A stretch of DNA of 64,000 nt from an uncultured virus (IMG/VR IMGVR_UViG_3300027798_002855) (lineage: Duplodnaviria > Heunggongvirae > Uroviricota > Caudoviricetes), in IMG/VR virus record IMGVR_UViG_3300027798_002855; one strand, 5' to 3'. The notes beneath the pieces were generated by a model, which was given only the letters and a program-made list of their open reading frames with translations, was not told where the DNA came from and ran no database searches. Below, piece after piece: positions 14,259 through 39,767 of this stretch. Position numbers and translations under genes: made by a program. The stretch's first letter is position 1. The number at the start of each line of letters is the position of its first letter.

Positions 14259-14288
14259 AAAGCGGGCTTAGAAATAGGCCCGCTTTTT
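14259..14288. terminator. Bidirectional intrinsic terminator between convergent units
   Basis: AAAGCGGGCTTA-GAAA-TAGGCCCGCTTT flanked by A and T runs. Confidence 0.85.
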
Positions 14289-16094: not shown

Positions 16095-16941
16095 TTAAAT
16101 GTCTCATTATCTTAAAAGAAAAATCTCTTTTATATTTTAACCACCAGCATACGGCTCTGTGAAGATTTGCTGGATAATCATTCATTAGTTTTTCAAAAAT
16201 GTTAGGCAATTCATTCCAGTCGTAAGTTAACTCTATTGGAACATTTTTGCCATAAACATAATCGTAAAAATTTATTTCTCTGCCCTTCGGATCTTTACGA
16301 TCTCCTATTGGTAAGGTCAACATTTCTATTGCCTCAAAAAACCTAAATGAATCTATTACTTGTGCACCAGATGGGGATGGAGCAACTTTTGCGCTTGCCA
16401 GTTTGCGATAGTACTCTTGTGGTGGATCCCCCTGTGCAAAGCCCTCTGTAGGGCAATATAGGGCGTTTTTGACTGCAGACATGGCCTTGGCTAACTCTTG
16501 TCTGCGTTGATGAGTTATTTGACCACCAAAATAAATATCATAATCTTTAATAGAATAATCAGGCAGGTTATTTTTTAAATGCTGGGGAACTCCAATAAAA
16601 AACCTATTGTATTTTTCGTGTTTTTGGTGCGGGTATTGAATCCAAATGCTTATATTAGGATGCTTAATTGCATCAACATTAAACAAACCTTGCTCATCTC
16701 CAGTTATAAATAATACAACACGATTAAGGTTTGCTAGTTCTTTGTTTATTTGTTCTTCACTACCTGCATTTCCCTGGCCTGGTATTACAACAAAAGCTCT
16801 ATCATCTTTAGGAATGCAGGTAACTAAAATTTCTTCTACACGGTTTCTATTGAATGCTTCTTTAAGCAAGCCGTAATCCCATTTGCCATTAGCAGAATCT
16901 AGTGGATCTGTAGAAAAAATATATACTTTAGATTGATTCAT
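16084..16941 (-). CDS. Exostosin/GT47-like glycosyltransferase
   Basis: FGGQ..R, PSG..DSFRFFEAI..LPI. Confidence 0.65.
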   Translation of the reverse strand: MNQSKVYIFSTDPLDSANGKWDYGLLKEAFNRNRVEEILVTCIPKDDRAFVVIPGQGNAGSEEQINKELANLNRVVLFITGDEQGLFNVDAIKHPNISIWIQYPHQKHEKYNRFFIGVPQHLKNNLPDYSIKDYDIYFGGQITHQRRQELAKAMSAVKNALYCPTEGFAQGDPPQEYYRKLASAKVAPSPSGAQVIDSFRFFEAIEMLTLPIGDRKDPKGREINFYDYVYGKNVPIELTYDWNELPNIFEKLMNDYPANLHRAVCWWLKYKRDFSFKIMRHLNEH

Positions 16942-17641
16942 AAAATAAATGAACCTCATGCTGATAGTCTAAAATTATTTCAGTATATCCTAATCCCTTG
17001 ATCCATTGTCTAAGATTATATAAAGATTCATCCCATTGCTGTAACATAAACTCAGGGTGTCCAGATAGCCAGATCTTTGGTTTGTACTCTCTAAGCACCT
17101 TCTCTGCACCTCCTAGCACCCTCCATTCACTACCCTCTACGTCCAATGAAATAGCGGTAGGTGGCTTAATGCCATGATCATACACACAAGAATCTATAGT
17201 AATTTGACCATAGGCATCTCCTTCAAGGTATAGTTCTTTAAATCCATGTGCTGCCTCAATTACATCATTAACTTCTGGAGGCCATTCATTATAATAAATT
17301 CTTGCAAGATCATTTATTTTATCAGAAGCAAACCCAGGAATACATACCATAGGAAGTTCTAGGTTGTTTGCAGTCCATGTTGCAGGAAAGTGCGACCAAA
17401 CTTTAGGATTTGGCTCAAACAACACCACCTCTGCTCCCCACATTTGACACAGCGCTGGAAACTCTCCTTCTTCAGCACCAACGTAGTAAACAACATCTCC
17501 AGTACCAATGTTCTCAGACATATGCTTTAGTCTTGGTTTTTCCCAACCGTGTGGTTGATACCAGTCTGGTCTATCAGCACGATGCTTTGGTAGTGTTATT
17601 TCAAATTCCCCGTTAATAGTAGCCTTAATCATTTCAGTCAT
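16928..17641 (-). CDS. FkbM-family methyltransferase
   Basis: VGAEEG, FEPNP, LDVEGSE..VL.G. Confidence 0.85.
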   Translation of the reverse strand: MTEMIKATINGEFEITLPKHRADRPDWYQPHGWEKPRLKHMSENIGTGDVVYYVGAEEGEFPALCQMWGAEVVLFEPNPKVWSHFPATWTANNLELPMVCIPGFASDKINDLARIYYNEWPPEVNDVIEAAHGFKELYLEGDAYGQITIDSCVYDHGIKPPTAISLDVEGSEWRVLGGAEKVLREYKPKIWLSGHPEFMLQQWDESLYNLRQWIKGLGYTEIILDYQHEVHLFYESI

Positions 17642-18521
17642 TTTGTATCCATTCCATTAATGATACCTTTGGTATCCATCCAGTTAAATCTTTAAACTTG
17701 GCATTAGACGCAAGAGTTTCTTGCACTTCACCAATTCTTGGCGGGATAAATTTAATATCATTTGAAATCATATTAGCAATATCAAGTATAGCGTAGTTGC
17801 TTCCATACCCAATGTTATATACCTCACCAAATCCATTTTCAACTTCAGATGCAAGTATGTTTGCTTCTATTACGTCTGATATATGAGTAAAATCTCTACG
17901 CTGAGATCCATTACCAACTACTGTTAGTGGTTTTGACTCATGATATTGTTTTAAGAATAGTCCTATTACTGGGGCATACTGTCCTTTTAATGGTTGTCTA
18001 TCTCCATAAACATTAAAATATCTAAGAGATATAGTCTTTAATCCGTAAAGGTTATAATAAACTCTTGCAAGGTTTTCACCAAAAACTTTAGCAGCAGAGT
18101 ATGGAGTTAACGGATCAGGCGATTGGGTTTCTTGGTTTGGAAGCAAAGCCTTTTTACCATAAGAAGAAGATGTGCTTGAATAGATTAGCCTATCTACCTT
18201 ATTAACCCTACAAAGTTCAAGAACATTTGCTGTTCCTACTGCGTTTGATTGAATAGATTTTTTAGGATTTAATATTGCTGGCTGTATTCTTGCATCAGAT
18301 GCTACGTGAAATACGCAGTCAACATCTTTAAAAAGTGATGCAATTAAGTCATAGTCACAAATATCATACTTATAGTTTTGTGCCTTATCATTCCAATAGA
18401 ACTGCTCATGACACTCTGCAGACTCATCATCAATACAAACAACGTCGTGACCAAGACTAATTAACTTATCAACAAGGTTTGAACCAATAAAACCAGCACC
18501 ACCAGTTACTAAATATCTCAT
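17634..18521 (-). CDS. NAD-dependent nucleotide-sugar epimerase/dehydratase
   Basis: TGGAGFIGS, YxxxK, LRYFNVYG, RDFTH. Confidence 0.93.
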   Translation of the reverse strand: MRYLVTGGAGFIGSNLVDKLISLGHDVVCIDDESAECHEQFYWNDKAQNYKYDICDYDLIASLFKDVDCVFHVASDARIQPAILNPKKSIQSNAVGTANVLELCRVNKVDRLIYSSTSSSYGKKALLPNQETQSPDPLTPYSAAKVFGENLARVYYNLYGLKTISLRYFNVYGDRQPLKGQYAPVIGLFLKQYHESKPLTVVGNGSQRRDFTHISDVIEANILASEVENGFGEVYNIGYGSNYAILDIANMISNDIKFIPPRIGEVQETLASNAKFKDLTGWIPKVSLMEWIQND

Positions 18522-19477
18522 TGTATGTTTAATGTTTCTAGTATTGTTGCCCACCTGTGTACATATGTGTGCTCTTGTTTAGTTCTTTCATGCCCAGCAA
18601 GTCTTATACTCTCTCTTGAAAGACCATCTACTAGATACTTATCTATCTTGGTTTTTAGATCTTCAAGATTACCATGTTCATAAAATACAATCTCATTGCC
18701 ATCTTCAAAGTATTCTTCAAGTCCTGTAATGCGAGGGTAGATAGTAAAACCACCACGACCAGTACTTTCAAACAATCTATCACTAGTGTAGTAAGGATAG
18801 TTAAAGTTAATATTTAAACTATCACCTATTGCTATTTTGCTTCTTGCATAAATCCGATTTAAAGCATCTCCACGTACAGTTCCAGTATCTCCATCGCCAC
18901 CAACATGACAAAACCTACTGCCGTAAGTGTCTTTTAAAAAATCTATTAGTTGTGGACGGAATGGATACTCTTTGTGATATCTTTTACTTCCCACGAAAAT
19001 AACATCATGATCGTAATACTTTTTATTATAATCTGAATGAAGATAGCACTCTTTGTCATAAACTCCAGCAGGAACAAAATGACCTTTTACTTTTGTATTT
19101 TTGTTAAACCAATCAGTCATTAGCTTGTCTGTAGCAAAGAAATGTTCTATGTTTGTGTAAAAACCATCATCTTTTAAGTCTTTTTGACGCTCAATACCAA
19201 ACCAAAGATCAAGATGATAAGTCATGGTTGGTATGTTAATCATCTTCAATTCTTGTAAAACTTCAATCATGTCAAAGTGTCCAGGGGTTTTCCAGCCATG
19301 GGTGTGTACCCATATGAATAAATCTGATTCTGATGCCTGGTAAAATATCTCTTTACCTGTTGCTTGACGCTCTTGTAATTTTATTACAGTATGACCCAGA
19401 GACTCCAAAGACGCTGCGTGATGATTCTCACTAGAATATGGAACTTCAAAGTTACCAAGAAAAACAATTTTTGCCAA
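18518..19477 (-). CDS. CgeB-like glycosyltransferase
   Basis: DVIFVG, SDRLFE..G.G, HTYVHR; TTG start after GGAGG. Confidence 0.8.
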   Translation of the reverse strand: MAKIVFLGNFEVPYSSENHHAASLESLGHTVIKLQERQATGKEIFYQASESDLFIWVHTHGWKTPGHFDMIEVLQELKMINIPTMTYHLDLWFGIERQKDLKDDGFYTNIEHFFATDKLMTDWFNKNTKVKGHFVPAGVYDKECYLHSDYNKKYYDHDVIFVGSKRYHKEYPFRPQLIDFLKDTYGSRFCHVGGDGDTGTVRGDALNRIYARSKIAIGDSLNINFNYPYYTSDRLFESTGRGGFTIYPRITGLEEYFEDGNEIVFYEHGNLEDLKTKIDKYLVDGLSRESIRLAGHERTKQEHTYVHRWATILETLNIQ

Positions 19478-19531
19478 TTTTATCCTCCACTGTAAATAAT
19501 TATAGCATGATATACTTGTAATAGGGGTAAA

Positions 19532-20224
19532 ATGAATTTTATATATATATGTCGTGGCGGGGAAAACCAAGAACTTAGGTACTCTGTTAGGACAGTTGTT
19601 AATAGTTTTCCAGACTCAGAGATCTGGGTAGTCGGCGGTATACCAAATTGGTACAAAGGTAAAAGTATAAGCATAGAGCAAAATGCTAGTAAATATAATA
19701 ACGCTATAGAAAACCTAAAGGCTATCGTAAAGTCTACAGAAACCCCAGAAGAGTTTGTTTTAATGAATGATGACTTCTTCATTGTAGACAAAATAAATTC
19801 AATAAAACATTATCACGAGGGACCCCTCCTTGATAAAATTGAAAAATACAGGGATTTAAAAATGGATCCTAGTTACGTTCAAAAACTTGGACAGACCTAT
19901 GCCAGATTACAAAGAATGGGCATGGAAGAGCCTGTAAGTTATGAAACTCATACCCCAATGATTATGCTTAAAGATAGGCTTAAAGAGGTTTTACAATATT
20001 GTCCTACTAGCCTTTGGAGATCTCTGTATGGCAACATACATCATGTTGGTGGAGAACAAATAAAAGATGTAAAGGTTTACTATAGAGATAGGTTTGCAAA
20101 AATATCAAATGACTATACTAATTCTGATTTCCCTTTGATGTCTACAGACGATGAATCATTTTTAATAATAAGAGATAGTTTATTAAAAAATAAGTTTAAC
20201 AAGAAAAGTAAATACGAGAAATAA
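19532..20224 (+). CDS. Stealth-like sugar-phosphotransferase
   Basis: ELRYSVRT and LMNDDFF motifs. Confidence 0.6.
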   Translation: MNFIYICRGGENQELRYSVRTVVNSFPDSEIWVVGGIPNWYKGKSISIEQNASKYNNAIENLKAIVKSTETPEEFVLMNDDFFIVDKINSIKHYHEGPLLDKIEKYRDLKMDPSYVQKLGQTYARLQRMGMEEPVSYETHTPMIMLKDRLKEVLQYCPTSLWRSLYGNIHHVGGEQIKDVKVYYRDRFAKISNDYTNSDFPLMSTDDESFLIIRDSLLKNKFNKKSKYEK

Positions 20225-20226
20225 AA

Positions 20227-20913
20227 CTATCTCATAAAATGATAATCGCCATCTGGGCCATTGTCAGAAAACATCCCCATGTTTTTAAATCCTTGTGATG
20301 AAAGATAATCAATGATAACTTCTTTTTCAGGAGATCCAATATTATACTCTACATCTCTTAGTTCTACTATGAGGTGTTCACAAGTTTTTAATGATTCAGT
20401 TGCACCCACAAGGACATCTAGTTCTGCGCCCTGAACATCAATTTTAATAAAGTCTGGCTCTTTAAACATCTCATATTTGACGGTATCATCTAAAGTAATG
20501 GTTGTCATTTCAACTATACTGTTATCATCAAACAAATAATCTGCTGCTGAACTATATTTTGAATTTTCCTTGTAATATGAATTGCCAGCAAAGTTATCAT
20601 TGTTCTGATAAAACTTTATATTTTTGTCAGAAGCATTACTTAAGGCACCAATGCTGTATTGCAATCCGCTTTCAACATAAAGACTTTCAAATGCATCTGT
20701 TGCATCAAACAAAACTATTTCACTCTCAGGCCAGATATCTTGCGCTCTTTGTGTCCAGTGTAAAACACATGCTCCAATATCATAAATTACTTTTGGGTTG
20801 AAGTTGTAATCATATTTTAATTTAAGCAGATATTTAAAATGTTTATCTGGTAGGTTTCTATAGTCGCTAACCTTTTTAATATTATCTAAAATATTTTTAT
20901 TATATTGTTTCAT
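20227..20913 (-). CDS. FkbM-family methyltransferase, second
   Basis: DIGA, IKIDVQGAELDVL.G. Confidence 0.85.
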   Translation of the reverse strand: MKQYNKNILDNIKKVSDYRNLPDKHFKYLLKLKYDYNFNPKVIYDIGACVLHWTQRAQDIWPESEIVLFDATDAFESLYVESGLQYSIGALSNASDKNIKFYQNNDNFAGNSYYKENSKYSSAADYLFDDNSIVEMTTITLDDTVKYEMFKEPDFIKIDVQGAELDVLVGATESLKTCEHLIVELRDVEYNIGSPEKEVIIDYLSSQGFKNMGMFSDNGPDGDYHFMR

Positions 20914-21487
20914 TGTTAATATCATACTTTCCAATTTTATTTAGCCACTGTGCCATAGCCCATGCCTCACGAAACCTTATGTTTGCCATAGTCATACCAT
21001 ACTCTCTACACAACCTTTCAAAATCTTTATAGGTTTTTGGTTTTTTTGTAAAAAGAATCCACATCAAGGCCGACTCTGTTGTTAAAAATGTTTTGCCACC
21101 TTTTATATGAGAAGGTCTTTTAATTACGTTGCACCTTCTGCATCTCAAAGTCATGTTTTCTAAACTGTCTGCTTGATCCCCTAACACTTCTCTCGGAACT
21201 ATGTGATCCGCCTGCAATTCAAGTCGTGTTCCGCAGTCAGCACATTTACCATTTTGATTCTTATGCCATTCATAAACAGCCTGCATGGTTTTTCTTGGTG
21301 GATATTTACTTTGAAAAGTTTTTTTTGATGCTATAGAGGTTCCCACTTGTGATGGATTTAAGTGTCCAAGAACTAAAGCCACAACTTCTTGCATGGTAAC
21401 AAGACCCTCTGTAATTAATTCATTTAATAAATTAATCCAATCTTGTTGAGTCCATTCACGATCACTGTCTGGAAATTTATTTTGCAT
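20900..21487 (-). CDS. HNH endonuclease
   Basis: CADC..DHIVP..N...CRRCN. Confidence 0.8.
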   Translation of the reverse strand: MQNKFPDSDREWTQQDWINLLNELITEGLVTMQEVVALVLGHLNPSQVGTSIASKKTFQSKYPPRKTMQAVYEWHKNQNGKCADCGTRLELQADHIVPREVLGDQADSLENMTLRCRRCNVIKRPSHIKGGKTFLTTESALMWILFTKKPKTYKDFERLCREYGMTMANIRFREAWAMAQWLNKIGKYDINNETI

Positions 21488-21641
21488 TTTTCTTTTCTTC
21501 AACTAATTTTTTAATATTGTTTATTTTAGTATAGGCATCTCCACCAGCATCAAGAAGTATTATAACTTCATCAAACGCTTGCTTACGAGCTTTTTTACAG
21601 CCATTGCAAGGACAAGCCCAATCTTTATTGTTGCTTTCCAA
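21477..21641 (-). CDS. Small Cys-rich protein (54 aa)
   Basis: TTG start, WACPCNGCKKA. Confidence 0.5.
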   Translation of the reverse strand: MESNNKDWACPCNGCKKARKQAFDEVIILLDAGGDAYTKINNIKKLVEEKKNAK

Positions 21642-22425
21642 GGTCTTGTTTTCTTTTAACTTTACCGTCTGCTACGCCAGTCCAATACATATTGTAATAG
21701 TTTACATCAAACGAAAATGTCTTGAGATGCTGAACATGTGCACCAGTATGAGCATATAATTGAATACCAGCCTCTTTTAGTTTTCTAAAGAAAGAAACAT
21801 CTTCGCTAATAAACTTATTTGCTGCTTGTTGATTTTCTCCAAATACAGAAAACTCACCAGCAACTTCACGAACTTTAGGAACAACCGATCTGTGCATCAA
21901 AACAAAACCAAAACCAGCAACATCAACTGGTATTAACTGATTTGTTGGCATAGGATGAATCGTTCTTGTTACATATTTATTGTCTGTATTCATATAAATA
22001 GCAGGAGTTGGCTCCATCAAACTCTGTTCATTTTCTTGGCTAACAAAATAAACTCCAGTAACAACTGGCTTAGAGATTTTATCTGAAGAATCCCATAGCA
22101 ACTTAAATGCACCCATAGTCATAACTATGTCTGAGTCAATCCACATTAACCAATCTGTGTTCATATTGTCATACCAATAGTCAATTAAAGATTGACGCTG
22201 TCTTGCTATTTGATTACCCTGCACACGAATAGTGCTTGCTACCTTGATTCCACTTCTCTGTGCTTCAAGCAGGGTATTTAAAATGCCACTTGCAAACCTA
22301 CCCTCTACAGTGCCACCGTCACACCAAGCAAAGGTAACTGTTTCCTTATCGCTGTGTCCTGATATTGGTTTATCTACAACCTTTTTTGGTTGTGCCTTAC
22401 TAGGCTGCTTTTTTGCCATTGCCAT
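21625..22425 (-). CDS. GT2-like glycosyltransferase
   Basis: WIDSD, GFGFVLMH, SEDVSF, H.K. Confidence 0.8.
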   Translation of the reverse strand: MAMAKKQPSKAQPKKVVDKPISGHSDKETVTFAWCDGGTVEGRFASGILNTLLEAQRSGIKVASTIRVQGNQIARQRQSLIDYWYDNMNTDWLMWIDSDIVMTMGAFKLLWDSSDKISKPVVTGVYFVSQENEQSLMEPTPAIYMNTDNKYVTRTIHPMPTNQLIPVDVAGFGFVLMHRSVVPKVREVAGEFSVFGENQQAANKFISEDVSFFRKLKEAGIQLYAHTGAHVQHLKTFSFDVNYYNMYWTGVADGKVKRKQDLGKQQ

Positions 22426-22528
22426 GCTCCCTTATATGTCTTGCAAGGGTGCTGTGAGCAAAGATGCCCCAACGCACCTCAAGTCCTTTACCGCATTGAT
22501 TGCAGACTGCTACTCTACCCTTGTCCAT
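22400..22528 (-). CDS. C2H2 zinc-finger-like miniprotein (42 aa)
   Basis: CNQC...LARHIREH; TTGACA-17-TATAAT promoter upstream, leaderless. Confidence 0.6.
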   Translation of the reverse strand: MDKGRVAVCNQCGKGLEVRWGIFAHSTLARHIREHGNGKKAA

Positions 22529-22549
22529 GTTTCTATTATATACCAAACA

Positions 22550-22717
22550 TTATTTATTGTCAATCTTAGGTTCTAACTTGTCCCACTTGCCTGCTGCATT
22601 GCCTTGATAGGTTTGTCCAGTTTCTCTGTCTATGAGCAGCCATTTTGTTGGGGATAATGTTTGTACAACTAGAACTACTTCGCTTAAAGTTTCAGGGAAT
22701 TCAAAAGAATCTCTCAT
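22550..22717 (-). CDS. Hypothetical protein (55 aa)
   Basis: MRDSFEFPE...KWLLIDRETGQTY; ATGA-coupled. Confidence 0.55.
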   Translation of the reverse strand: MRDSFEFPETLSEVVLVVQTLSPTKWLLIDRETGQTYQGNAAGKWDKLEPKIDNK

Positions 22718-23478
22718 ATACCATTATCTTCCATATATTTTAATCTTTCCATAATAACATCAGTATTTGGATCAGCCAGGAATTGATCAAGAGCCTCTTT
22801 AACTATTGGGCGCATCTCATCAACTGCAGGGCCACCTTCATTTTCCATATTAGATATATCATAATGATAGGCATCTGAATCCTCTGTAACCCACTTGGCA
22901 GCATCTTCTACATCCCATTTGCGGGTATTGATAAGACGATGTATAACAGGTTTACCAGGCTTAGTAGTAAATGAAGGCTCTAAAACAAAAACACGATTGT
23001 TAGGCTGAATAGCAAAATTACCATCATCACGCTCTATAACATGACCACATTTATGTTGCCCAGGATTTTCTGAATACCCATCATCAAGGCTATTAGAGTC
23101 TCCTCCATACCAGTCAAGGCTAAACAAATACTTGCCAGATATCTTATTCTTACTTCTGTTCAAATAATTCATACGAAGGTTTGCAAGGTTTGAAAATCTG
23201 GTGACGGTAATGAAAGGACTAAAAGAATTCCATAGAACTAGATCATGTATGTCTATCTCTGGAACTCCTGGTTTGGTACAGAAGGCATTAATAGGCATTC
23301 TCCACCAGATACCACCATCTTCCATCATAAAATGAAACAGGGGACTTCGGTTTGGAACACTAGCAACGCCGAAAATTACACAGGGAAAGTATTGATCGTG
23401 ACTATCCTTTTGATCTCGCAAAAAGTTACCACGGATGTAGCATTCAATCGGCGGTATATTAGCATTTAATTCAGGCAT
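22714..23478 (-). CDS. Conserved phage hypothetical protein
   Basis: LNANIP, HKCGH, QPNNR. Confidence 0.75.
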   Translation of the reverse strand: MPELNANIPPIECYIRGNFLRDQKDSHDQYFPCVIFGVASVPNRSPLFHFMMEDGGIWWRMPINAFCTKPGVPEIDIHDLVLWNSFSPFITVTRFSNLANLRMNYLNRSKNKISGKYLFSLDWYGGDSNSLDDGYSENPGQHKCGHVIERDDGNFAIQPNNRVFVLEPSFTTKPGKPVIHRLINTRKWDVEDAAKWVTEDSDAYHYDISNMENEGGPAVDEMRPIVKEALDQFLADPNTDVIMERLKYMEDNGI

Positions 23479-25817: not shown

Positions 25818-25826
25818 TTATCCACA
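25818..25826 (+). promoter_or_regulatory. DnaA box
   Basis: Perfect TTATCCACA, intergenic. Confidence 0.5.
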
Positions 25827-29369: not shown

Positions 29370-29447
29370 GGGGGTCCTTTCTGTTTGTCGTAATACAATT
29401 ATCCCAAAATCAGGGAATTCTGTCAATCTGTCGTAAAGTGATTTTGG

Positions 29448-29930
29448 TCACACCTTTCCCTCTACCCTCGTGGATTGGCATTCCATGCACTTAGGATCTA
29501 TAGGATCGTAGTACTCTTTATAGCCAACATCCTCCAACTCACCTGCGGCAGTATATGTGGCCTCGTTATAGGAATTCTCCATGAATGAGAACCTAGTTAC
29601 ATTATTACAATCTAAACACTTAGGCATCTGCACCCATCTCCCATGGCTCTACTTTATAGTTTGCACATATTTGCTCAATGCAATCTTCAAGTTCGGTAAA
29701 GAATAGGCCACCTTCATTGTCGTCAAAATGACTAATCATGTTGTCAGTTATCTTGAATTCCCATACTATTTTCATTGGACATGTCCTTCTGCTAACAGAC
29801 CTTCAAAGAAGTCCCATACTATTAGTAATTGTTTATAGTTTTGTTCATCCCCTTGGTTTTTGGCAGTATCAATAGCCCAAGTCAAACTATTACCAAATGC
29901 TTGTATATCTTGATATGTATAACCTAACAT
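29448..29930 (-). CDS. Three short coupled ORFs (29772-29930, 29620-29775, 29448-29633 Zn ribbon)
   Basis: Own translation; AGAAAGG RBS and promoter upstream. Confidence 0.6.
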
Positions 29931-30079
29931 AATTACCCTTTCTGTGGTAAATATATTGTAGCAAATTTTGGGGAAAAAATCAAACTATCGTAAAGAATTT
30001 TAGGTAAAAATATCATGGATCCCGGGGGGATTTTAAAAAAATTGAGCAGTTTATACTCTTACTCAGGAGTTGAATTAGA

Positions 30080-31090
30080 TTAAACTAATTCTAAAGTATT
30101 TTTTACAATACCTAGCAGACGATTTTTTTCTGCTGTAATTGTCGCATCAAAACCAGAAGCAGCAGCAAGCAGAGATTCGTTAGAATTACCACGAGCAGAC
30201 CTGTGCCAATCAAGGCGTTCAGTTAGAGCATTGAAAGCACCCCAAGCGGTATTGGCAATCATGCCATTAAACTCGCCTGTGTAAATATCATTGATTAAAT
30301 CAATTTTATTTTCCCACTTCTTTGATGAGCCTTTAGAATCTTTATCAGGCTTAGGATAAGCAGCAAGAACAATATCATTGAACTGTTGCGCTGTGATTTC
30401 TTTTTCAATCATAGCCTTAGCCATAACATCAAAAGAATCCATATAAGCATTAGCAAGACCAAGGGCCTCACGAGCAATTTGGACTTTACCATTAGCGGTC
30501 TGTGTGTGGCGAATCTTGAAAGATTGCTTGATTTTATTCTTCTTAGAACCAAGCGCAAGATTAAGAGTGTTAGCGCATACAACACGCACTGGTGTGATAC
30601 TTGCTTGAATAGCAATAGAGCCATCATGTGATGTATTGATAAGTAAATAAGTTTTTACCTTATCTGCCACACCATTAGGGTCTAATACTGTTTCACGCTC
30701 AAGAGCAAGAGAGCCAAATACAACACGCCCTCCACGAATAGAGCCAGCGGTTTCCCATCTGCCTCCACCATCTAGGATATTATCACCAAATGAGAATAAG
30801 TCCTCATTTTGTAAAACATGATAACGCTCACCAACAACACCTAAAATATCTGTCTGAGAGTTATTTGTAGGATTTGTCCTAACAACATACTGATATTCTT
30901 TATCTGATGATAAAGTATTTGGAATCTCAACATCAACTAATCTAACATTCCAATTATTTAGATTAGCAGCAGCAAGCATTTCTGCTGTGGTTTTTTCATC
31001 TGTGAATACTGTGCCTAGACCATGCCAAGCAGGCTCACGCAATGAAGCAAAAGAAGCAACGCCATTTTGCGTTTCTAACTCATGTGCCAT
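30080..31090 (-). CDS. DUF932 (phage/plasmid-like TIGR03299) protein
   Basis: MAHEL..PAWHGLG, ETAGS..GG, NTSHDGS, TPVRVVCANT. Confidence 0.9.
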   Translation of the reverse strand: MAHELETQNGVASFASLREPAWHGLGTVFTDEKTTAEMLAAANLNNWNVRLVDVEIPNTLSSDKEYQYVVRTNPTNNSQTDILGVVGERYHVLQNEDLFSFGDNILDGGGRWETAGSIRGGRVVFGSLALERETVLDPNGVADKVKTYLLINTSHDGSIAIQASITPVRVVCANTLNLALGSKKNKIKQSFKIRHTQTANGKVQIAREALGLANAYMDSFDVMAKAMIEKEITAQQFNDIVLAAYPKPDKDSKGSSKKWENKIDLINDIYTGEFNGMIANTAWGAFNALTERLDWHRSARGNSNESLLAAASGFDATITAEKNRLLGIVKNTLELV

Positions 31091-31270
31091 TTTTATTTCC
31101 TTTCTATTTGTTTAGACAATCATATCAGGTGGGTCTGACAATGTCAATTCATACTATTAAGAATCTGGGCAAAACGGACATCGTTCTTAAACTTGACAAA
31201 AGATCTTTTTGCCCCCCGGGATTTTGGAGAGCAGTTTTAAGACATGCTCAGGTCTTGGATAGCCCCACTA

Positions 31271-31735
31271 TCACACGTTATAGATATTATCTATCTCAAC
31301 ACCTACTTCTCCGTCATATGAATTTAGTTCAGCATAAACATTTAAGTCAATGTCGCTAACCTCAAAATTAGCAACTTCATCTAACGGAACTAATATTGTT
31401 CCTGTGATTGTGGCGGTAGCCTCAAACTGAATTTCCTTAGTAGGATTAAATCCAAAGATACTACAAATATCAGCAACGATTTCCTCTGAACCCATATCAA
31501 GGTAATCAGGTAGGCGACTTTCTAACAGACCTACTCCCTGAGTATATCTATTAAGTTCTCGTCTTTCTCTGCGGTGTTGATGTAATTCCCACTCAAGGTC
31601 GCTAACCTTTACTGTGGGATACCAATTTGTATAGTCTGTTTGGTGTGCCTCAGAATCAATAATCTTATAGGTCACGATTTGATTTGGGTTGTAGTGGTTT
31701 GGCACTACTATTTCATTAGTTGTTTCTGTATTCAT
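31271..31735 (-). CDS. Hypothetical protein
   Basis: ORF track. Confidence 0.7.
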   Translation of the reverse strand: MNTETTNEIVVPNHYNPNQIVTYKIIDSEAHQTDYTNWYPTVKVSDLEWELHQHRRERRELNRYTQGVGLLESRLPDYLDMGSEEIVADICSIFGFNPTKEIQFEATATITGTILVPLDEVANFEVSDIDLNVYAELNSYDGEVGVEIDNIYNV

Positions 31736-31997
31736 TTAAGAGTTCCTCTCCTACTGTATCCATTTCTTTAATGGTATCCATCATATCGTTTAACTGTTCC
31801 TCTGTCAATAGTGCGTGGGTCACTAAGGTTGTTGTCATAGCAGAGAGCATAGCGGAATAGTTATACATCTCTTTGATAAAACTTTCATCATCTACTTCAT
31901 TTCTGATACTGACAATGTGTTTCACAATTTCCATTATCATGTCATCATGAACTGCGTCTCTTGACGCTTCTTGTAATTTAATAGCGGTTGCTATCAT
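31716..31997 (-). CDS. Hypothetical helical protein
   Basis: AGAAAGG RBS before MIATA. Confidence 0.7.
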   Translation of the reverse strand: MIATAIKLQEASRDAVHDDMIMEIVKHIVSIRNEVDDESFIKEMYNYSAMLSAMTTTLVTHALLTEEQLNDMMDTIKEMDTVGEELLNEYRNN

Positions 31998-32228
31998 GGG
32001 GCGTTCCTTTCTTTTGGTTATACCCAAGTCTATCAAAAATATAGGAAAAATACAAATCGTGTCTTAAACCAGCTATGTGATCATTATCACATTTCCCGGG
32101 GGGCGCAAAAAAAATAAGCAGTTTTAGTTCATGCTTAGGAACTGTATGCCTCGCTATAGCACTGGCAGGGACATTTGGTTGTGGCTGGGGGAATTCCGAT
32201 TACACACCCGAAACCAGCCACAATTCTA

Positions 32229-32396
32229 TTAGTGTGTTTTTACCATAGCAAATCTTGTTTGATTATTTGCCAAGCGCAACATTACTTTAGTGACATTACG
32301 AGTTTGTGGGACAAACTTTTCAATGCGACCTGTAATACCTGTTTTGCTTGTTGTAAATAAATCACCAAGTTGGTATCTGTATCCTCCAAGTGTCAT
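32229..32396 (-). CDS. Small SH3-like beta protein (55 aa, not in track)
   Basis: YQLGDLFTTSKTGITGRIEKFVP; AGAAAGG RBS. Confidence 0.7.
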   Translation of the reverse strand: MTLGGYRYQLGDLFTTSKTGITGRIEKFVPQTRNVTKVMLRLANNQTRFAMVKTH

Positions 32397-32471
32397 TTAC
32401 TTTTCCTTTCTGTTAGGGGTTTTTGTTGAGCAGTTTTAGTTGTCATACTCAGGACATTTAGCGTTTGCTAA

Positions 32472-32891
32472 TTATAGATAACGAGCGATAGCATTATAGG
32501 TGCTAGTGCTAACTACTTCCTCATCTGTCATTTTGAGAATACGAATTGCGTTCTCAATTTCATCTACCATTTCCTTGTATTGCCACTCATTGTAAGTGTC
32601 AAAATCTTTCTGAGGTTCATCAGGTAGAACTATACTTCCACTAGGTAAGTTGAAATCTACATTTATAGTGCCATTGTAGCGAACATTGGCAGATAAATCT
32701 GTTGCCTTGCTTATTTGAGCAAGTGCTAACTTTCCTACTTCTTTGTTGTATTTCTCTTGCGCCTTTGAGAACTTTTCCTCATTGACTTTTTGATTAGCCT
32801 TATCCTTTTGGATTTGGGCTAGTTTTGCTTCTAGAGCCTTTATGACTTTAGTTGTAGCGATTTTTACGCTAATTGCTTTTCCTCTTGACAT
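32472..32891 (-). CDS. Hypothetical coiled-coil protein
   Basis: ORF, own promoter and AGAAAGG RBS. Confidence 0.75.
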   Translation of the reverse strand: MSRGKAISVKIATTKVIKALEAKLAQIQKDKANQKVNEEKFSKAQEKYNKEVGKLALAQISKATDLSANVRYNGTINVDFNLPSGSIVLPDEPQKDFDTYNEWQYKEMVDEIENAIRILKMTDEEVVSTSTYNAIARYL

Positions 32892-32977
32892 AATTACCTT
32901 TCTGTGTAATTTATTGGTGGGCTATTATTTTAGCATTTTTAGGTGGGATAGTCAATTTGGCTACCCCACCCATTTGA

Positions 32978-33142
32978 CTACTTAGATTTCCAAGTTGTCC
33001 AACGAGTTGCGCCATTTACATCAAGTTTAACGCGAACTGTGTCCTTGTTGGTTGGCACGATTTCCTTGATAACACCTGTCACCTTAGACTTCTGTGAGGT
33101 GTAAGTGTCGCCGACCTTGTAAGTTGCTACTGCTACTGACAT
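32978..33142 (-). CDS. Small SH3-like beta protein (54 aa), paralog of 32229-32396
   Basis: YKVGDTYTSQKSKVTGVIKEIVP; AAGGAG RBS; TTGACA promoter. Confidence 0.7.
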   Translation of the reverse strand: MSVAVATYKVGDTYTSQKSKVTGVIKEIVPTNKDTVRVKLDVNGATRWTTWKSK

Positions 33143-33386
33143 TGTTTCTCCTTTGTTAGTTGTTTTTTCATTACTGTATTATTATCGCATTTTTGGTATT
33201 TATTGTCAAGTCCTATACCCTAAAAATCTCATTATTTGAGATTTGTGAGGTAAGTCACTAATTGCCCATTCCCGAAAAAACTAGCAGTAGGCATGTGACT
33301 CCTAAGATTATTAGTAATTCCACGATTCCCCTTTCTGTCCTTGATTTTATCATTTTGCGGGGGTATTGGTCAAGTCCCCCTAGATC

Positions 33387-34106
33387 CTACTTCTTCTTAG
33401 CAGAGAAAACTATATTAGCCTTGTTATCAATACATAGAGAGCAGACTACGCAAGCAGAGCCCTCTTTAGATATTAGTGGAATAGCCTTTTTATTTTCAGG
33501 GCATTTAGCTCCAGGCTTACCTATCATCTCTTTCATATCTGCCTGACCAATTGCGAAGGTATCAGCAAGGTATGCTAATTTAACTCCAGTATCTTTATTT
33601 AATTTAATAGCAATTTTTTTATTCTCGCTATCTGTGGAATAGTATAGAGATAGATTATCAATACCCTTAAGAATATTGACCGCAGAGGCTACTCTTGTAT
33701 ATACCCAAAACTTTATATCAGAATTATTAAGGATGATATGCTTCCAGGCGAAGGCATAAGTATCATTGAAAAAGTCTCCGTCCCAATGGATACGAAATAA
33801 TTTAGGAGCATTGCGCTTATCACAATCAGCCTTAAAATCATTTATCATATCTTGCAATAGGTCTTCCATAGTATCGTGGTCAGCGTCTTTTAATAAATTC
33901 CAATTATGAATTAGGTTTTCTCTTACGCCTTTATATACTCTTTCAAGTTTTCCTGCGTAGCAAACACTTTCACAAACACTAGTGGCACCAGGGCACGAGT
34001 AAGCCTTGCCAGCAGGCAGTCCAAAAGTGTTGGCGATTGTTGCGGTTTTTCCATTGGGTGATACGGCATTAGCGACCTTTCTATCGTTAGAGCGTTTTAG
34101 TTTCAT
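33387..34106 (-). CDS. Gp88-like (radical-SAM-related) phage protein
   Basis: FGLPA..SCPGA..C...CYA, FRIHWDGDF, YTR. Confidence 0.8.
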   Translation of the reverse strand: MKLKRSNDRKVANAVSPNGKTATIANTFGLPAGKAYSCPGATSVCESVCYAGKLERVYKGVRENLIHNWNLLKDADHDTMEDLLQDMINDFKADCDKRNAPKLFRIHWDGDFFNDTYAFAWKHIILNNSDIKFWVYTRVASAVNILKGIDNLSLYYSTDSENKKIAIKLNKDTGVKLAYLADTFAIGQADMKEMIGKPGAKCPENKKAIPLISKEGSACVVCSLCIDNKANIVFSAKKK

Positions 34107-34141
34107 AGGGGTCCTTTCTTACTTCCTAGAATAACATTTTT

Positions 34142-34270
34142 TTAATCTTTTGTCAATTTTTTATGCTTGGTTTTGCGGGAATAAATTTTCTTGTTCCTTA
34201 ATGGCGTGGCAGCAGAAGACCTACGTAATTCCATTAATCTACGTAATTCTTCTCTAGGTTTTTTCCACAT
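34142..34270 (-). CDS. Small basic protein (42 aa)
   Basis: ELRRSSAA.P..NKK.YSRK.KH; leaderless. Confidence 0.55.
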   Translation of the reverse strand: MWKKPREELRRLMELRRSSAATPLRNKKIYSRKTKHKKLTKD

Positions 34271-34334
34271 AAAATAATCTTATCATAAAAATATCATAAA
34301 AGCAAATCGGACAAATCGGGCGCCCCGGGGGCTT

Positions 34335-35299
34335 TTATTCTAAAATATACAATTCAAATTTTTCATTATCAAAAATTTCAACATCTTCTTTTTCATCAAA
34401 CTCATTATCAATGACAAGAGCGAACCCATCTTTAGTTGGAGTAATTGAAATAATTTTTACAATACCAATAATGCCTAAACCAATTAGATCTCCTACTTCT
34501 AATTGGTCAGCATTAAGAATATCTACAAATCTGTAATCCATAGAAATTAGTGTATCAGACATTTATTTACCTGATACCCTTCCGTCACGATAAAAAATCT
34601 TAGTAATCATTTTACCTGATGGCTCTGAAAAATTGTAGGTTGCGTATTCATTAGCAAATCCCCAATCCTTTATTTTATCCCACTCGCCAACTGCGCTAAT
34701 TGCGTCAGAATAACGACCAACCCAATAAGGGGCTTTATCGTTATCATAGGTTGCGGTAATTGCGTATAAGTATTCCATTTTAGTATTCCCTTTCAATAAG
34801 CCACGCATTTAGGTGGTGTTGCTCAATAATAGCCCAAGCAGGGGCGGTAGTCAAACCCTTATAGGTTATTCCTTCAGGCATAGGTATTTCTAAATCCCAA
34901 AGTCCAGCGTCATTAACTGCGTCTATGGCTTCAACGCAAGGAGCAACCATAGAGCGGGGAACGGGCGGGTAATGATTAGCAGATAGGTGAATTGCTATCT
35001 GACTTTCAATTTCAAGATTATCAGCAAGGGCTAAATCGTGAGCAAAAATACTTCCCATTTTAGTTAGCCTCTCTACTAGCAAAGATACTGAGATTATAGA
35101 AATCTTTAATTAGTTCAGGCTCGCTTAGCAAACCATTATCCCAAATTACATCTCCGTCATCATCTAAGATTAGTTCATAGGGATTACACTCGCAAACCTC
35201 AAAATCAAAATCCTCGCCAATTCCCCAATACAAATTACCTTTACCCTCGCAAGCATTACAATTGCGAATTGTGTTTAACGCGTATTCTACTTTATCCAT
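34335..35299 (-). CDS. Operon of four short hypothetical ORFs (35060-35299, 34780-35058, 34563-34778, 34335-34562)
   Basis: Abutting ORFs; the first has CNAC.G.G..CEC. Confidence 0.65.
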
Positions 35300-35394
35300 T
35301 TTTCTTTCCTTCTTTCTGTTTAATACTGTAAGCCTATCAGATAGGGCTGACATTTCCAAATCTGCCACGCCCTGTCCGATATGTCCGTTTTGTC

Positions 35395-35892
35395 CTACCA
35401 AGAACTCTGATAGTAGAAAGACAATTCCTCAAACTCAGGCAGATTAATTAGCCTTCTCAATTGCTTTCTAGTATCCTCAATATCTCGCCAATACCACTCA
35501 TCAATATCTGTTCCACCAAAGAAAAATCCTTCTGTTGGCGGTAGCAAATTAGGGTCCTTATTAGTTATAGCCAAAGCACAAAGTGTTTCTAATTCTCTTA
35601 TCTTAGTATTGGATACATAGTATTCTCCACAATTATCCTCGCCACCTTGAATATTCTTTACAAACCAATTGTGTATCTGATTACACTTGCGCCAATAGCA
35701 GACATTTACTGACACATCTACACCATAGATACCTTCTCTATCTGCGAGGGTAGCCAAACCAGCACTATCTACTACATTATCCCATTGTGGATAAGTAGCC
35801 TGTGAATACTTAGTATCGCTATCACGATCAAGTAAATCCCAATTTACTTTTTTAATGTGCTTTCTAGCACTCATATACATATCTAATCCCAT
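35395..35892 (-). CDS. Widespread phage early hypothetical protein
   Basis: MGLDMY, YWRK.NQIH.WF, FYYQSSW. Confidence 0.8.
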   Translation of the reverse strand: MGLDMYMSARKHIKKVNWDLLDRDSDTKYSQATYPQWDNVVDSAGLATLADREGIYGVDVSVNVCYWRKCNQIHNWFVKNIQGGEDNCGEYYVSNTKIRELETLCALAITNKDPNLLPPTEGFFFGGTDIDEWYWRDIEDTRKQLRRLINLPEFEELSFYYQSSW

Positions 35893-35893
35893 T

Positions 35894-36058
35894 TTACTGT
35901 TCCTTCTTTCCAAAAACATTTTCCATTATATTTAAGTTTTCCTCTGTTAGAAAACTCTGTGCGCTTCCCCATAAGCCATAAATATAGTTATCACCATATT
36001 TTTCTTTAGCTAATTTTTCAATATTAGCAATTCTTTCCATTTTTTCAATAACTGTCAT
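35894..36058 (-). CDS. Hypothetical protein (54 aa)
   Basis: AGAAAGG RBS; YGLWGSA. Confidence 0.55.
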   Translation of the reverse strand: MTVIEKMERIANIEKLAKEKYGDNYIYGLWGSAQSFLTEENLNIMENVFGKKEQ

Positions 36059-36183
36059 TTTAGTTATCCTTTCTTTATTTTCAGGCTTCTAGCCTATCAT
36101 TTTCTACTGACAAAATCAAATTAGACACGCCCAAAAACTGTGAGAAAATTCACAAGCCCCGTAAAGTGCTACGTAATTCACAT

Positions 36184-36204
36184 TGTGGATAACCCTGTGG
36201 ATAA
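36184..36204 (-). promoter_or_regulatory. Tandem DnaA boxes
   Basis: TGTGGATAA twice, 3-bp spacer. Confidence 0.7.
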
Positions 36205-36416
36205 CCCCCCCGGGGCCTTGCAACTCTAACTATTTAAATTAAAGTTGCAATTTTGAAATCAAACTTTTATTTGATTCCATTTCATTTCAGCATTTTTTTT
36301 TCGCAATTCTCTGTTTTCATTTTCTAATTTTCTAAGTGTAATTAGTCCGTGAAATGTTATTCCAATTAAGCCAACGAGAGCAATTATTATTGCGATTACA
36401 TCAGTTGTTAAAAGTG

Positions 36417-36868
36417 TCATACGGGAATTAGTCCTATCTCATCAACACCGCAAGCCTTCTCAAATCTTGCGAAGTCAAATCTATCATTGTCAGACTTGAA
36501 AAATTGTGAAAACTCCTCTACCAAATCCTCAAAAACTTGCGGGTGGATTTCCTCGCTGAAACCTTTTAGAATTTCAGCGGTTTTGACATAGTCTTTTCGT
36601 GTCATCATTAGTTAGACCCCTCATCTAATAGAATAAATGCGTGAGTTCCACCATTATTTATTTTAGTTAGTGCTATTAGCAATTCATCTTTAGTTAGAAA
36701 TGAAGCGTCACCTACCAATTCGGTTAGTGCTTGAATATTTAATTCAGCAAATGCGCCAGCAGGCAGGCTCTCAATACTAGATAGAAATGGAGAGTCAGAA
36801 TAAACTCTTGAAACGAATTTTACTCCGTTAGTTGTAAATGGGAAATCTTTATAGGTTGTGTTAGTCAT
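36417..36868 (-). CDS. Two short hypothetical ORFs (36608-36868, 36417-36608)
   Basis: Coupled; MTRKDY..DN.RFD..RF..AC. Confidence 0.7.
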
Positions 36869-36996
36869 AGTTAGTTTTTACCTTTCTTGGTGTTTGTGTT
36901 ATTTACTATTTTAGCGATTTTCTCTAAGTTTGTCAATTCTTGCGCCTTGCGCTGGCTCTCAATAAGAGCCTTGAATTCGTGTAGTTTCATTGGAGA

Positions 36997-37203
36997 TTAC
37001 TCTCCAACTTTAACTGCTAGGGTAGCCCAATAATCTCGGGAAGCAAATCTGAAGCGAATTGCGTAGGCTTCATAGCCCTCAGATAGATAGACATTATCTC
37101 GCTTCTCAGCGTAGTTAATTTCTCCACCCATAAATCTCCTGCTCATAGAGCGTGGATAGTAGAACTTGCCAACTAGCAAGTCTGGAATTGAGTATGATTT
37201 CAT
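36997..37203 (-). CDS. Hypothetical protein
   Basis: AGAAAGG RBS, own promoter. Confidence 0.65.
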   Translation of the reverse strand: MKSYSIPDLLVGKFYYPRSMSRRFMGGEINYAEKRDNVYLSEGYEAYAIRFRFASRDYWATLAVKVGE

Positions 37204-37315
37204 TTTAAGTTATCCTTTCTAAGATACTTTCTAATAGTTCTATTATTTCATTTTTTAGCGTAAAAGTCAAATTAGACCCACGCTTGGTGAGTGTGAGGTT
37301 AATCACACCTTCCCC

Positions 37316-37513
37316 CTAGTTAGGGAGAATGTCTATTCCGTAGTATTCTACGGCTTCAACTATGTTAGTCATACCCTTATACTCACGACAAGATACGCAT
37401 ACCGCGTTCCAACGATCATAAGTAGTTGAGCAGAACACGCAGATTTTATCTTGAAAATTAAAGTTATTTTCAATTAAGTATTCTATTACTTGATTTTTAT
37501 CTAGTGTAGTCAT
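37316..37513 (-). CDS. Zn-finger-like protein
   Basis: CVFC..CVSCREYKG. Confidence 0.65.
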   Translation of the reverse strand: MTTLDKNQVIEYLIENNFNFQDKICVFCSTTYDRWNAVCVSCREYKGMTNIVEAVEYYGIDILPN

Positions 37514-37546
37514 TTTAAGACCTACCTTTCTTTTTAGTGTGTTAAC

Positions 37547-37615
37547 TTATTTGCTCTTATCTTATTTGCTAGGCTCACCTTTCGGATTATTTGCTAGGCT
37601 CATTTAAGAGGCTCA
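37547..37615 (-). repeat. Short direct repeats in 5' leader
   Basis: TTATTTGCT x3 and AGGCTCA x3 (16-mer TTATTTGCTAGGCTCA x2). Confidence 0.8.
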
Positions 37616-37925
37616 TTTAACACTATTTATTTTTTCTTATACTAGAATTATAACAGGGGGGTCTGACATTTTGAGAGAACAAATCAGGATAAATCGGACA
37701 TTCTGAAAAACTATTTTTGTGATAGTAGTCACAAATAAACTATGACAAATCGGACACCCCCCGGGGACCGACACGCCCGAACGCGGGGGTGGGAAAAGTG
37801 TGACCAACACCACAAAAATACTTTGCGACACGCCGTGTTTAGATTTGATTTTGTCGGTCTGCTCTGTTATACTTCCCGTATTAGATAGTTAAAATATAAC
37901 TACTAAACGAAAGGTAAAAACTAAA

Positions 37926-38758
37926 ATGATAAGCGATTTTTTTGGAAATACATTGGACTCAGTGTCAGACTTCTTTGGAAATATTACAGACTGGGCAGAT
38001 GATGCTTTAGCAAGTGGGCCATGGCCAGCATTTATTGGCGTTGCCATATGCGTGATTATAGGTATAGCCACCCTTTAGGGTGTGACCTAAATCACAGGGA
38101 TTACCCCACAGACACCCCCCAAAATGTCAGTGGCAACAGATAGAATTACAGGTATAACAAAAAGAAAGGTTAGGTAGCAAAAAATGCTAACACTAAATTA
38201 CACAGTATCTAAAGAGGATACTATACTTACAACATCAGATAGGCTGATGATAAATGAGCGTCAAATAAATGACCTTATGGATAGCCTAGTGGCTTACGGA
38301 TTTACAGTAGAGGCTATGTCAGTAGCCCCTGCTACACTTTAAGAATTAAGAAAGGATAAACTAAAATGATAAACGCAATAGAAAGAATAAATTGTGATGA
38401 GTGTTATGGACACGGACTTATTTTCTACGGAGATGAGAACAACTATGACACAGAACCTTGCGAGTGTGTATGACCTACACACTAGAGCAACAACTGCGCC
38501 TAGCGTGGATAAATAAAAATGGTAGCCCCAAAGGTTATCACCAAGCAACACAACAACAGAAAGAACAGGTGTTAAATGAAAATAACGATAACTAGTATGA
38601 GTGGCAAAGAAATGAAAATGGATTTGCCTACTAAAGAAAATGTCTATTACTTTATAGACCTATACAAAAAATCTCTAAAGAAAAATCAACGAGTAAAAAT
38701 TACTTGCGATTTATTAGGTATTGACGGATATTTACAAGGCACTGCTTCTAGTAAATAA
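37926..38758 (+). CDS. Four short rightward early ORFs (37926-38078 TM, 38184-38342, 38366-38473 Zn, 38576-38758)
   Basis: Own translation; GAAAGG RBS before the first three; PafBC-type promoters. Confidence 0.6.
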
Positions 38759-39107: not shown

Positions 39108-39260
39108 ATCTATTTTCCATATTTATTAATTATACTCAATATACCAATACATATACAAATAGCCAGAGACATGTTTATAACAAATTGCAACATATAGCCA
39201 TTATATAGCAAAACTATACAAAAAACAATATATATGCTACAATTATATAAAAGGGAAAAT

Positions 39261-39767
39261 ATGGACATTCAAATTATAGACGATTTCTTAGATAAAGACA
39301 GTTTTGAAAATATCAAAAATACCATGCTTTCAGAAAACTTCCCATGGTTCTATGTGCCCAGAAAAACAAATGGTTATGACTTTAATGAGAATTTTCAGTT
39401 TGTTCATATTTTTTATATACGTCATTCAATAAACTCAAACCATTCTCAAATTCTTAATCCATTAATAGATAAAATTGATGCACTTGCTTTAGTAAAAATT
39501 AAAGCAAATTTAACAGTAAAAACCAAAGAAATTATTGATTATGGATATCATACAGACTATATAACAGATAGCAAACTTTATACAGCAGTTTACTATATTA
39601 ATAGTAATAATGGATCTACTAATTTTGAAAATGGTCCAAGCGTAAAATCTAAAGAAAATAGAATAGTCATATTTGACTCTCAACTTCGTCATAGTGGCAC
39701 TAGTTGTACAGATGAGCGTTTGAGAGTATTGATAAACTTGAACTTTTATAAAAATCCATCTAACTAG
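39261..39767 (+). CDS. 2OG-Fe(II) oxygenase-like protein
   Basis: HTD, YYIN..NG.T, NR.VIFD...H, R.LIN. Confidence 0.8.
   Translation: MDIQIIDDFLDKDSFENIKNTMLSENFPWFYVPRKTNGYDFNENFQFVHIFYIRHSINSNHSQILNPLIDKIDALALVKIKANLTVKTKEIIDYGYHTDYITDSKLYTAVYYINSNNGSTNFENGPSVKSKENRIVIFDSQLRHSGTSCTDERLRVLINLNFYKNPSN

Follow-up and report, generated by a model that had tools for sequence, protein, structure and literature searches.

Which protein reads the promoters of an uncultured tailed phage in which the hexamer TGTCAG or TGTCGG stands exactly 10 nucleotides (nt) ahead of a TAnnnT -10 element? The DNA analysed here, called the window, is a 64-kilobase (kb; 64,000-nt) stretch of IMG/VR record IMGVR_UViG_3300027798_002855 (Caudoviricetes). 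A first-pass annotation, made from its letters alone, had recognised in this arrangement the DNA-damage motif of the actinobacterial activator PafBC, at six sites on both strands. It proposed that the phage may exploit the damage response of its host, and suggested looking for pafBC in candidate hosts, for a WYL gene in the phage and for the motif genome-wide. The identification as the established actinobacterial motif held, since the word, its length and its register equal the in vivo PafBC promoter consensus, given as tGTCgg(N10)tA(N3)T (PMC8635444). The same text places the helix-turn-helix of PafB on positions -23 to -28 (the '-26 element'), names R46 and R50 as the residues that read the GTC triplet, which is the key contact, and states that no -35 element could be found. 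PafBC-dependent (RecA-NDp) promoters of Mycobacterium and other Actinobacteria are described as being read by 'sigma adaptation' (PMC8635444, PMC6789036). Seven sites in the window match the 22-nt consensus exactly, with its invariant GTC, and degenerate copies at the promoter of a DUF932 gene retain TGTC. The balance of probability tilts slightly towards co-option of host PafBC by the phage at these promoters; we infer PafBC binding, activation, the timing of expression and the identity of the host from sequence comparisons.

To count the motif, TGTCRG-N10-TAnnnT was searched on both strands of the window, with 100 dinucleotide-preserving shuffles as the control. Eight exact matches were found against a shuffle mean of 0.96 and a maximum of 4, and none of the 100 shuffles reached eight. 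Enrichment was specific to the 10-nt spacing, as each other spacing between 4 and 19 gave 0-2 matches. Seven of the eight matches cluster at 31119-38338. The eighth, at 55848-55869(-), lies antisense within a long plus-strand gene and looks like chance, because about one chance match is expected in the window. The six sites of the first-pass annotation were all recovered, at 31119-31140(-), 35331-35352(-), 36091-36112(-), 37647-37668(-), 37852-37873(+) and 38125-38146(+), but its list was short by one: a seventh site at 38317-38338(+) falls just outside the range it had given.

Downstream of each of the seven clustered sites, and on its own strand, come a Shine-Dalgarno-like word and a start codon, in most cases after 28-55 nt; the leftward promoter of a hub from which transcription would diverge is further off, with a 133-nt leader. 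A TGn directly before TAnnnT, forming an extended -10, is present at six of the seven sites. A -35-like hexamer lies exactly 17 nt from the -10 at four of them (TTGACA, TTGGAA, TTGATT and TTGATT), as the annotation had said of several copies, and at these four the TGTCRG box occupies -28 to -23 in the spacer, one base separating it from the -35. These positions are reckoned from the -10 hexamer and not from a mapped start. The three sites at 37668, 38125 and 38317 are without a -35, and the site at 38125 is also without the TG. As the annotation had also said, the box is present at the DUF932 promoter and at the two promoters of the hub (37668(-) and 37852(+)).

To follow the box beyond the window, 383 relatives of the DUF932 protein were found in IMG/VR, and 80 loci with a guanine-plus-cytosine (GC) content of 33-41% (1.30 Mb) were analysed, together with five complete relatives of 114-120 kb. 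The 80 loci contain 539 matches at N10, compared to 5-65 at each of N6-N9 and N11-N15. The five complete genomes have 6-13 matches each against 1-2 for a reversed-pattern control, and nearly all of these matches lie in one block of ~10 kb. In a logo of 419 unique family sites, position 5 is A in 95%, the spacer is rich in C, the -35 is weak and TG stands ahead of the -10 (T 0.69, G 0.75). Among 395 unique family sites, 154 (39%) match the -35 at four or more of six positions against 14.5% at random, 253 (64%) have the extended -10 TG against ~7% at random, and 98 have neither; 324 are followed within 120 nt by a ribosome site and a start codon.

The DUF932 promoter allowed the box to be compared at one place in all 80 loci. 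The exact box is kept in 62, TGTC is followed by other letters at positions 5-6 in seven, and the box is lost while the -35 and -10 are kept in 11. An alignment of 64 distinct sequences upstream of this gene shows the box conserved to the same degree as the -35 and -10 hexamers, next to a variable spacer. An unbiased tabulation, in which every TAnnnT followed by a ribosome site and a start was taken and the word 10 nt upstream was counted, returned TGTCAG in 219 of 4284 sites, with 17 for the runner-up word. Restricted to relatives of at most 62% protein identity, the counts were 104 of 852 for TGTCAG and 7 for the runner-up. TGTCAG is unchanged in relatives down to ~55% protein identity, including at non-orthologous promoters. 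Because the box is conserved while the adjoining spacer varies, and because TGTCAG is kept in distant relatives, sequence comparison indicates that the box is under selection.

The gene content of the window, whose GC is 33-41%, is that of a large tailed phage, with portal, tail, baseplate and lysis proteins, a sugar-modification cluster and a class II ribonucleotide reductase; no transfer RNA genes were found in it. The nearest named relatives are phages of actinobacteria: proteins of ~130-kb Streptomyces phages share 53% identity with the DUF932 protein, and the reductases of Actinomycetia phage DSL-LC01 and Mycobacterium phage Gaia share 61% with that of the window. GP88 and DUF7455 are among the Pfam matches of the window proteins. 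A WhiB-like protein is encoded by all five complete relatives, and the 171 WhiB matches in the phage collection are all in phages of Streptomyces, Mycobacterium, Microbacterium, Rhodococcus or 'Actinomycetia'. Since gene content, actinophage relatives and WhiB point the same way, an actinobacterial host, though not any one order, is well supported, in keeping with the actinobacterial setting that the annotation had assumed. Megablast of 30-40 kb of the window against the phage collection gave no DNA match, and the nearest record, a 24-kb fragment (G001), has no motif matches. A scan of genome contigs for the reductase returned only phage contigs mis-binned into metagenome-assembled genomes (MAGs) of many phyla and was uninformative on the host. 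Equally uninformative was an Hsp20 search of 401 genomes of the phylum, whose one match was in G007, a MAG discussed below. The sole DUF932 match in the candidate order was also in G007, on a contig of 49% GC, and gives no host link.

PafBC itself was sought in this candidate order, to which G007 belongs. WYL matches were found in 41 of 41 sampled genomes (1.2-2.2 Mb), and each of the 40 genomes besides G007 has at least two, which lie, among the matches listed, ~0.9 kb apart on one strand. In one genome of the order, G014, pafB (WYL and WCX domains) is followed by pafC (HTH_PafC, WYL and WCX) and then by tatC. Its PafB matches the Mycobacterium smegmatis PafB chain 7p5x_AY of a solved initiation complex with an expect value (E) of 4e-39, and Arthrobacter PafBC 6sj9 with E 1e-32; the RMFERDK recognition helix is kept, with both DNA-reading arginines. 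The recA gene of G014 carries TGTCAGTGGCACCTGCTACCTT, a TGTCAG-N10-TAnnnT type site, next to a LexA-type box. Box sites also stand upstream of carD, of the gene for a PD-(D/E)XK nuclease beside pafBC, of genes for LysM and DUF6504 proteins and of a gene cluster at 436-473 kb, and at many of the G014 sites the start codon lies 6 nt past the -10. Motif totals in 13 genomes of the order were not above a reversed control (9-16 vs 7-17), and several of the G014 sites recur at the same place across genomes of the order. Beyond the order, 301 genomes of the phylum were sampled, of which 203 scored above cut-off for HTH_PafC; the tally includes 11 unpublished genomes (G169, G050, G288, G137, G275, G317, G067, G223, G097, G197 and G131), on which no other result here depends. 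Judged by the pafB-pafC-tatC arrangement, the conserved arginines and the recA box of G014, PafBC and its box exist in at least one plausible host lineage.

Within the same G014 genome, the stretch G014:C1:436700-473700 (loci L108-L116) holds ~10 PafBC-type boxes within 37 kb. The genes that these boxes precede, many of them leaderless, include those for two TPR proteins, an OGG-like glycosylase, a trypsin-like protease and a type II C5 methyltransferase, besides several unknowns, and the stretch may be a PafBC-controlled island. As a candidate defence island it was set aside, because PADLOC recognised in its genes nothing beyond a type II methyltransferase and a match to a protease domain, too little for such a call.

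The phages appear to bring no such factor of their own. None of the five complete relatives encodes a WYL domain, an HTH_PafC domain or a protein matching the G014 PafB query at E up to 1, so that the phage WYL gene raised by the annotation was not borne out; any PafBC would therefore be the host's. What the phage sites share with PafBC promoters is the 22-nt TGTCRG-N10-TAnnnT layout, a box that falls at -28 to -23 when reckoned from the sigma-A -10, an invariant GTC, a non-palindromic word and the occurrence of the same box at recA of the candidate host order. On this basis, the host housekeeping RNA polymerase would read the seven sites through the TAnnnT -10, mostly with the extended TG. 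Host PafBC, activated by single-stranded DNA, would bind the box at -28 to -23 and sit between sigma region 4 and the DNA, adapting sigma A to the promoter. It would turn on those sites that have no -35 and raise the output of the dual sites that have one, and the gene block would thereby be tied to the DNA-damage or foreign-DNA alarm of the host. Sites with the box and neither a -35 nor TG, such as 98 of the 395 family sites and 38125 in the window, seem to need an activator. A more far-reaching version has in our view an even chance of being right: an abundant lineage of freshwater actinophages may use PafBC as its own switch, with phage DNA, whether injected or replicating, activating PafBC and thereby firing 7-16 promoters per genome, and the many box copies may titrate PafBC off the damage and defence genes of the host. 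It would be the first known case of a phage turning the sigma adaptation of a host WYL activator to its own use.

The proposal that the phage borrows the PafBC switch thus draws on the consensus match, the actinobacterial setting, the lack of a phage PafBC in the relatives and the PafBC and recA box of the candidate host, and several observations weigh against it. A missing -35, the trait of PafBC promoters, is found at three of the seven window sites and not at the other four, and the 39% of family sites with a -35-like hexamer are likewise unlike the described promoters. Mean -35 matches are 3.46 for box promoters and 3.44 for a noisy set of box-free promoters (p = 0.50). The phage sites also differ from those of G014 in the letters that follow the box, which are TG in nine of 15 sites of G014 against one of seven in the window, and the phage sites favour C-rich spacers. 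Further differences from PafBC promoters are that the phage copies stand in a lytic-type genome, that seven of them are clustered and head small genes of no known function, that most have the extended -10 TG and that position 5 is almost always A, compared to g in the mycobacterial consensus. The candidate order itself was entered through one mis-binned phage contig in G007, a 1.5-Mb Actinomycetota MAG, which is not evidence for a host. The same leftward block of the window also has promoters of the ordinary kind, at least seven TTGAC(A/T)-17-(-10) arrangements whose spacers are AT-rich and lack the box; because the block holds these, the box marks a promoter class and not a general spacer habit.

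The confinement of the motif to one lineage weighs on the same side. It was not enriched in seven other actinophages, with 0-3 matches against 0-3 for the control: none in DSL-LC01, 3 vs 3 in Bmoc, 3 vs 0 in Gaia, 0 vs 2 in BillNye, 1 vs 1 in NiceHouse, 0 vs 0 in Topanga and 1 vs 1 in Dorin. IMG/VR was also scanned for TGTCAG-N7-TGnTATAAT, and 80 of at least 144 stretches were examined. Among these 80, every locus with three or more general matches shares homologues with the window, and 14 loci without window homologues have one or two matches. As judged from these scans, the motif is private to one deep phage lineage, and a phage-encoded factor would therefore also fit.

Such a factor is the main competing explanation, which we regard as unlikely. 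The box would be the site of a phage-encoded activator that remodels or bridges sigma A at 'middle' promoters, and its likeness to the PafBC site would be mimicry or coincidence. In phage T4, MotA and AsiA are both phage-encoded and act at the -30 box of middle promoters through sigma remodelling. The box-free sigma-A promoters of the block could express a factor of this kind first, and the block holds many conserved small open reading frames (ORFs) that belong to no family of known function in Pfam, PHROGs or the protein Atlas. The same searches (Pfam at E up to 1) returned no regulator or helix-turn-helix family among the block ORFs and no candidate for a T4-type activator or co-activator, small proteins without a known fold being present; none of these, nor a WYL or PafB/C-like protein, was found in the five complete relatives. 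Phage operator-regulator pairs usually drift, whereas the word is unchanged at ~55% protein identity. A match in both word and spacing to the site of a host activator would, by our estimate, be a coincidence of about 1 in 10^4-10^5.

Still less probable is that the box is a spacer operator at which a phage or host repressor silences the block or shuts it off. Positions -28 to -23 lie between the -35 and the -10, the classical position for a repressor. Many family sites could fire unaided, given that 39% have a usable -35 and 64% an extended -10, and the 11 of 80 DUF932 promoters that lost the box yet keep both hexamers would suit an operator. The 98 family sites without either element, like 38125, would be poor promoters without an activator. 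The word is moreover asymmetric and single, neither a palindrome nor a repeat, and its strict 10-nt register to the -10 holds also at sites without a -35. That no dedicated factor is involved, and that the word either aids host polymerase directly from the spacer or was inherited by duplication of one promoter cassette, is very improbable: the promoters are alike in their C-rich spacer, TGn and TAnnnT, and duplication often makes promoter cassettes in phage early regions, but the adjoining spacer varies freely while the box is kept, the word persists over deep divergence and at non-orthologous promoters, the box-free promoters of the block have AT-rich spacers and hence show no general spacer preference, and we know of no sigma-A contact at -26.

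Co-option of host PafBC has partial parallels in other systems. LexA boxes wire phage genes to the host SOS response in temperate coliphages and in CTX phage, mainly for prophage induction, LexA being a repressor that is removed on DNA damage. There too, the site of a host regulator on phage DNA couples expression to a damage signal, whereas here the site would be that of an activator, the phage is large, and no integrase or repressor was seen in the window by PHROG and Pfam annotation. The T4 middle promoters (MotA box at -30 plus AsiA), named as 'sigma appropriation' in PMC8635444, also form a phage promoter class in which a dedicated box next to a normal -10 takes the place of the -35, or adds to it, and is read through a remodelled sigma region 4. 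They differ in that the T4 factors are phage-encoded, while here no phage factor was found and the box corresponds to the site of a host activator. The WYL regulators BrxR and CapW of defence systems and DriD of Caulobacter are likewise described as linking damage or phage attack to transcription by sensing single-stranded DNA; the genes under their control are those of the host, whereas here the phage would use the signal.

PafBC is the main DNA-damage activator of actinobacteria and has an unusual mechanism in sigma adaptation, and WYL regulators are otherwise treated as sensors through which the host induces repair and its defence against phages. If the phage does borrow PafBC, this picture would be reversed, with the host alarm serving an invading phage lineage, and the natural hybrid promoters (-35, -26 and extended -10) would offer a simple and testable set in which to study how PafBC and sigma region 4 share a promoter. 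Relatives of the phage are common in lakes, as seen from the 383 in IMG/VR and from pieces in freshwater metatranscriptomes, and abundant freshwater actinobacteria could thus be affected in their ecology. No report of PafBC-type promoters in phages was found in the accessible text of the literature that combines PafBC or RecA-NDp with phage or mycobacteriophage.

The seven sites probably head small, early gene units, where 'early' is judged by gene size and layout only. Most block ORFs encode small acidic proteins. On the minus strand, the DUF932 promoter (31119-31147) consists of the -35 TTGACA at 31147-31142, the box TGTCAG at 31140-31135 and TGa with the -10 TATGAT at 31124-31119. First behind it lies the DUF932 gene at 30080-31090(-), of 336 amino acids (aa; Pfam PF06067, E 2.4e-50; PHROG 1221). 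The promoter at 35331-35359(-) has the -35-like TTGGAA at 35359-35354, TGTCAG at 35352-35347 and TGa with the -10 TAGGCT at 35336-35331. It is followed by a small acidic ORF of 79 aa at 35060-35299(-), for which no family match was obtained, and then by ORFs at 34780-35082, 34563-34808 and 34335-34562. Further upstream, the promoter at 36091-36119(-) combines the -35-like TTGATT at 36119-36114 with TGTCAG at 36112-36107 and TGa plus the -10 TAGGCT at 36096-36091, ahead of a 54-aa ORF at 35894-36058(-) and a 174-aa ORF at 35395-35919. The 22-mer of this promoter is identical in the complete relatives G003 and G004.

At the hub, the leftward promoter (37647-37668, minus strand) has TGTCAG at 37668-37663, TGt with the -10 TATAAT at 37652-37647 and no -35-like hexamer. 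The first gene leftward, a 65-aa ORF at 37316-37513(-), lies past the leader, in which direct repeats occur at 37530-37640 (TTATTTGCTAGGCTCA twice, and GAGGCTCATTTAA-like words). The rightward promoter (37845-37873, plus strand) has the -35-like TTGATT at 37845-37850, the box as TGTCGG at 37852-37857 and TGt with the -10 TATACT at 37868-37873, and precedes a 50-aa ORF with a hydrophobic tail at 37926-38078(+). The purest case of a box plus a -10 is the promoter at 38125-38146(+), with TGTCAG at 38125-38130 and TAGAAT at 38141-38146, which heads a 52-aa ORF at 38184-38342(+). At the end of that ORF stands the seventh site (38317-38338, plus strand), with TGTCAG at 38317-38322 and TGc before the -10 TACACT at 38333-38338. 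Behind it is a 35-aa four-cysteine ORF at 38366-38473(+), homologues of which were found in 22 of 80 loci of the wider clade scan. Contigs from freshwater metatranscriptomes (X1-X4) overlie parts of 29-41 kb; they reveal neither starts nor strand, nor do they prove transcription.

The block also contains words that resemble the sites of other host regulators. TGTGA-N6-TCACA palindromes, which we take to be of the CRP/GlxR-type consensus, gave eight matches with at most one mismatch against 2.56 expected, all at 29437-38096. Five of them are perfect (32076, 36139, 37292, 37718 and 38081), and several have their centre ~60-75 nt ahead of the deduced start points of box promoters. Two tandem GGTTATCCACA words lie at 36184-36206(-), just upstream of the 36112 promoter. 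GGTTATCCACA contains TTATCCACA, presumably the classical DnaA-box word, and the tandem copies could be a replication origin or a DnaA-responsive site. The presence of such CRP-type and DnaA-box-like words in the block favours host factors, as far as resemblance goes. Further words of this kind lie at 35786-35794(-) and 25818-25826(+).

Two more words recur in the 80 related loci, TGTCCGWTTT with 204 copies against nine for the reversed control and GGCGTGTC with 253 against three for the control. Each has a preferred spacing to the TGTCAG box downstream of it, 30-40 nt for the first and 15-19 nt for the second, and both contain TGTC. In the window, TGTCCGWTTT is found at 13834(+), 31180(-), 34313(-), 35382(+), 37700(-) and 37756(-), and GGCGTGTC at 36131(-), 37777(-) and 37834(-).

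Elsewhere in the window, a pyrimidine-dimer DNA glycosylase (Pfam Pyr_excise) and a second ORF, called 'DNA endonuclease V' by PHROGs and 2OG-Fe(II) oxygenase by Pfam, are located at 12517-13047(+) and 39234-39767(+), with no box promoter at either. A leftward cluster at 14287-23478(-) encodes glycosyltransferases, FkbM-type methyltransferases, an NAD-dependent epimerase and an HNH endonuclease, and probably modifies sugars on DNA or the cell surface. Seven copies of a GC-rich palindrome of the CCCCGGGG type are found at gene-unit boundaries of the AT-rich block, at 26511, 30021, 31214, 32095, 34323, 36208 and 37759.

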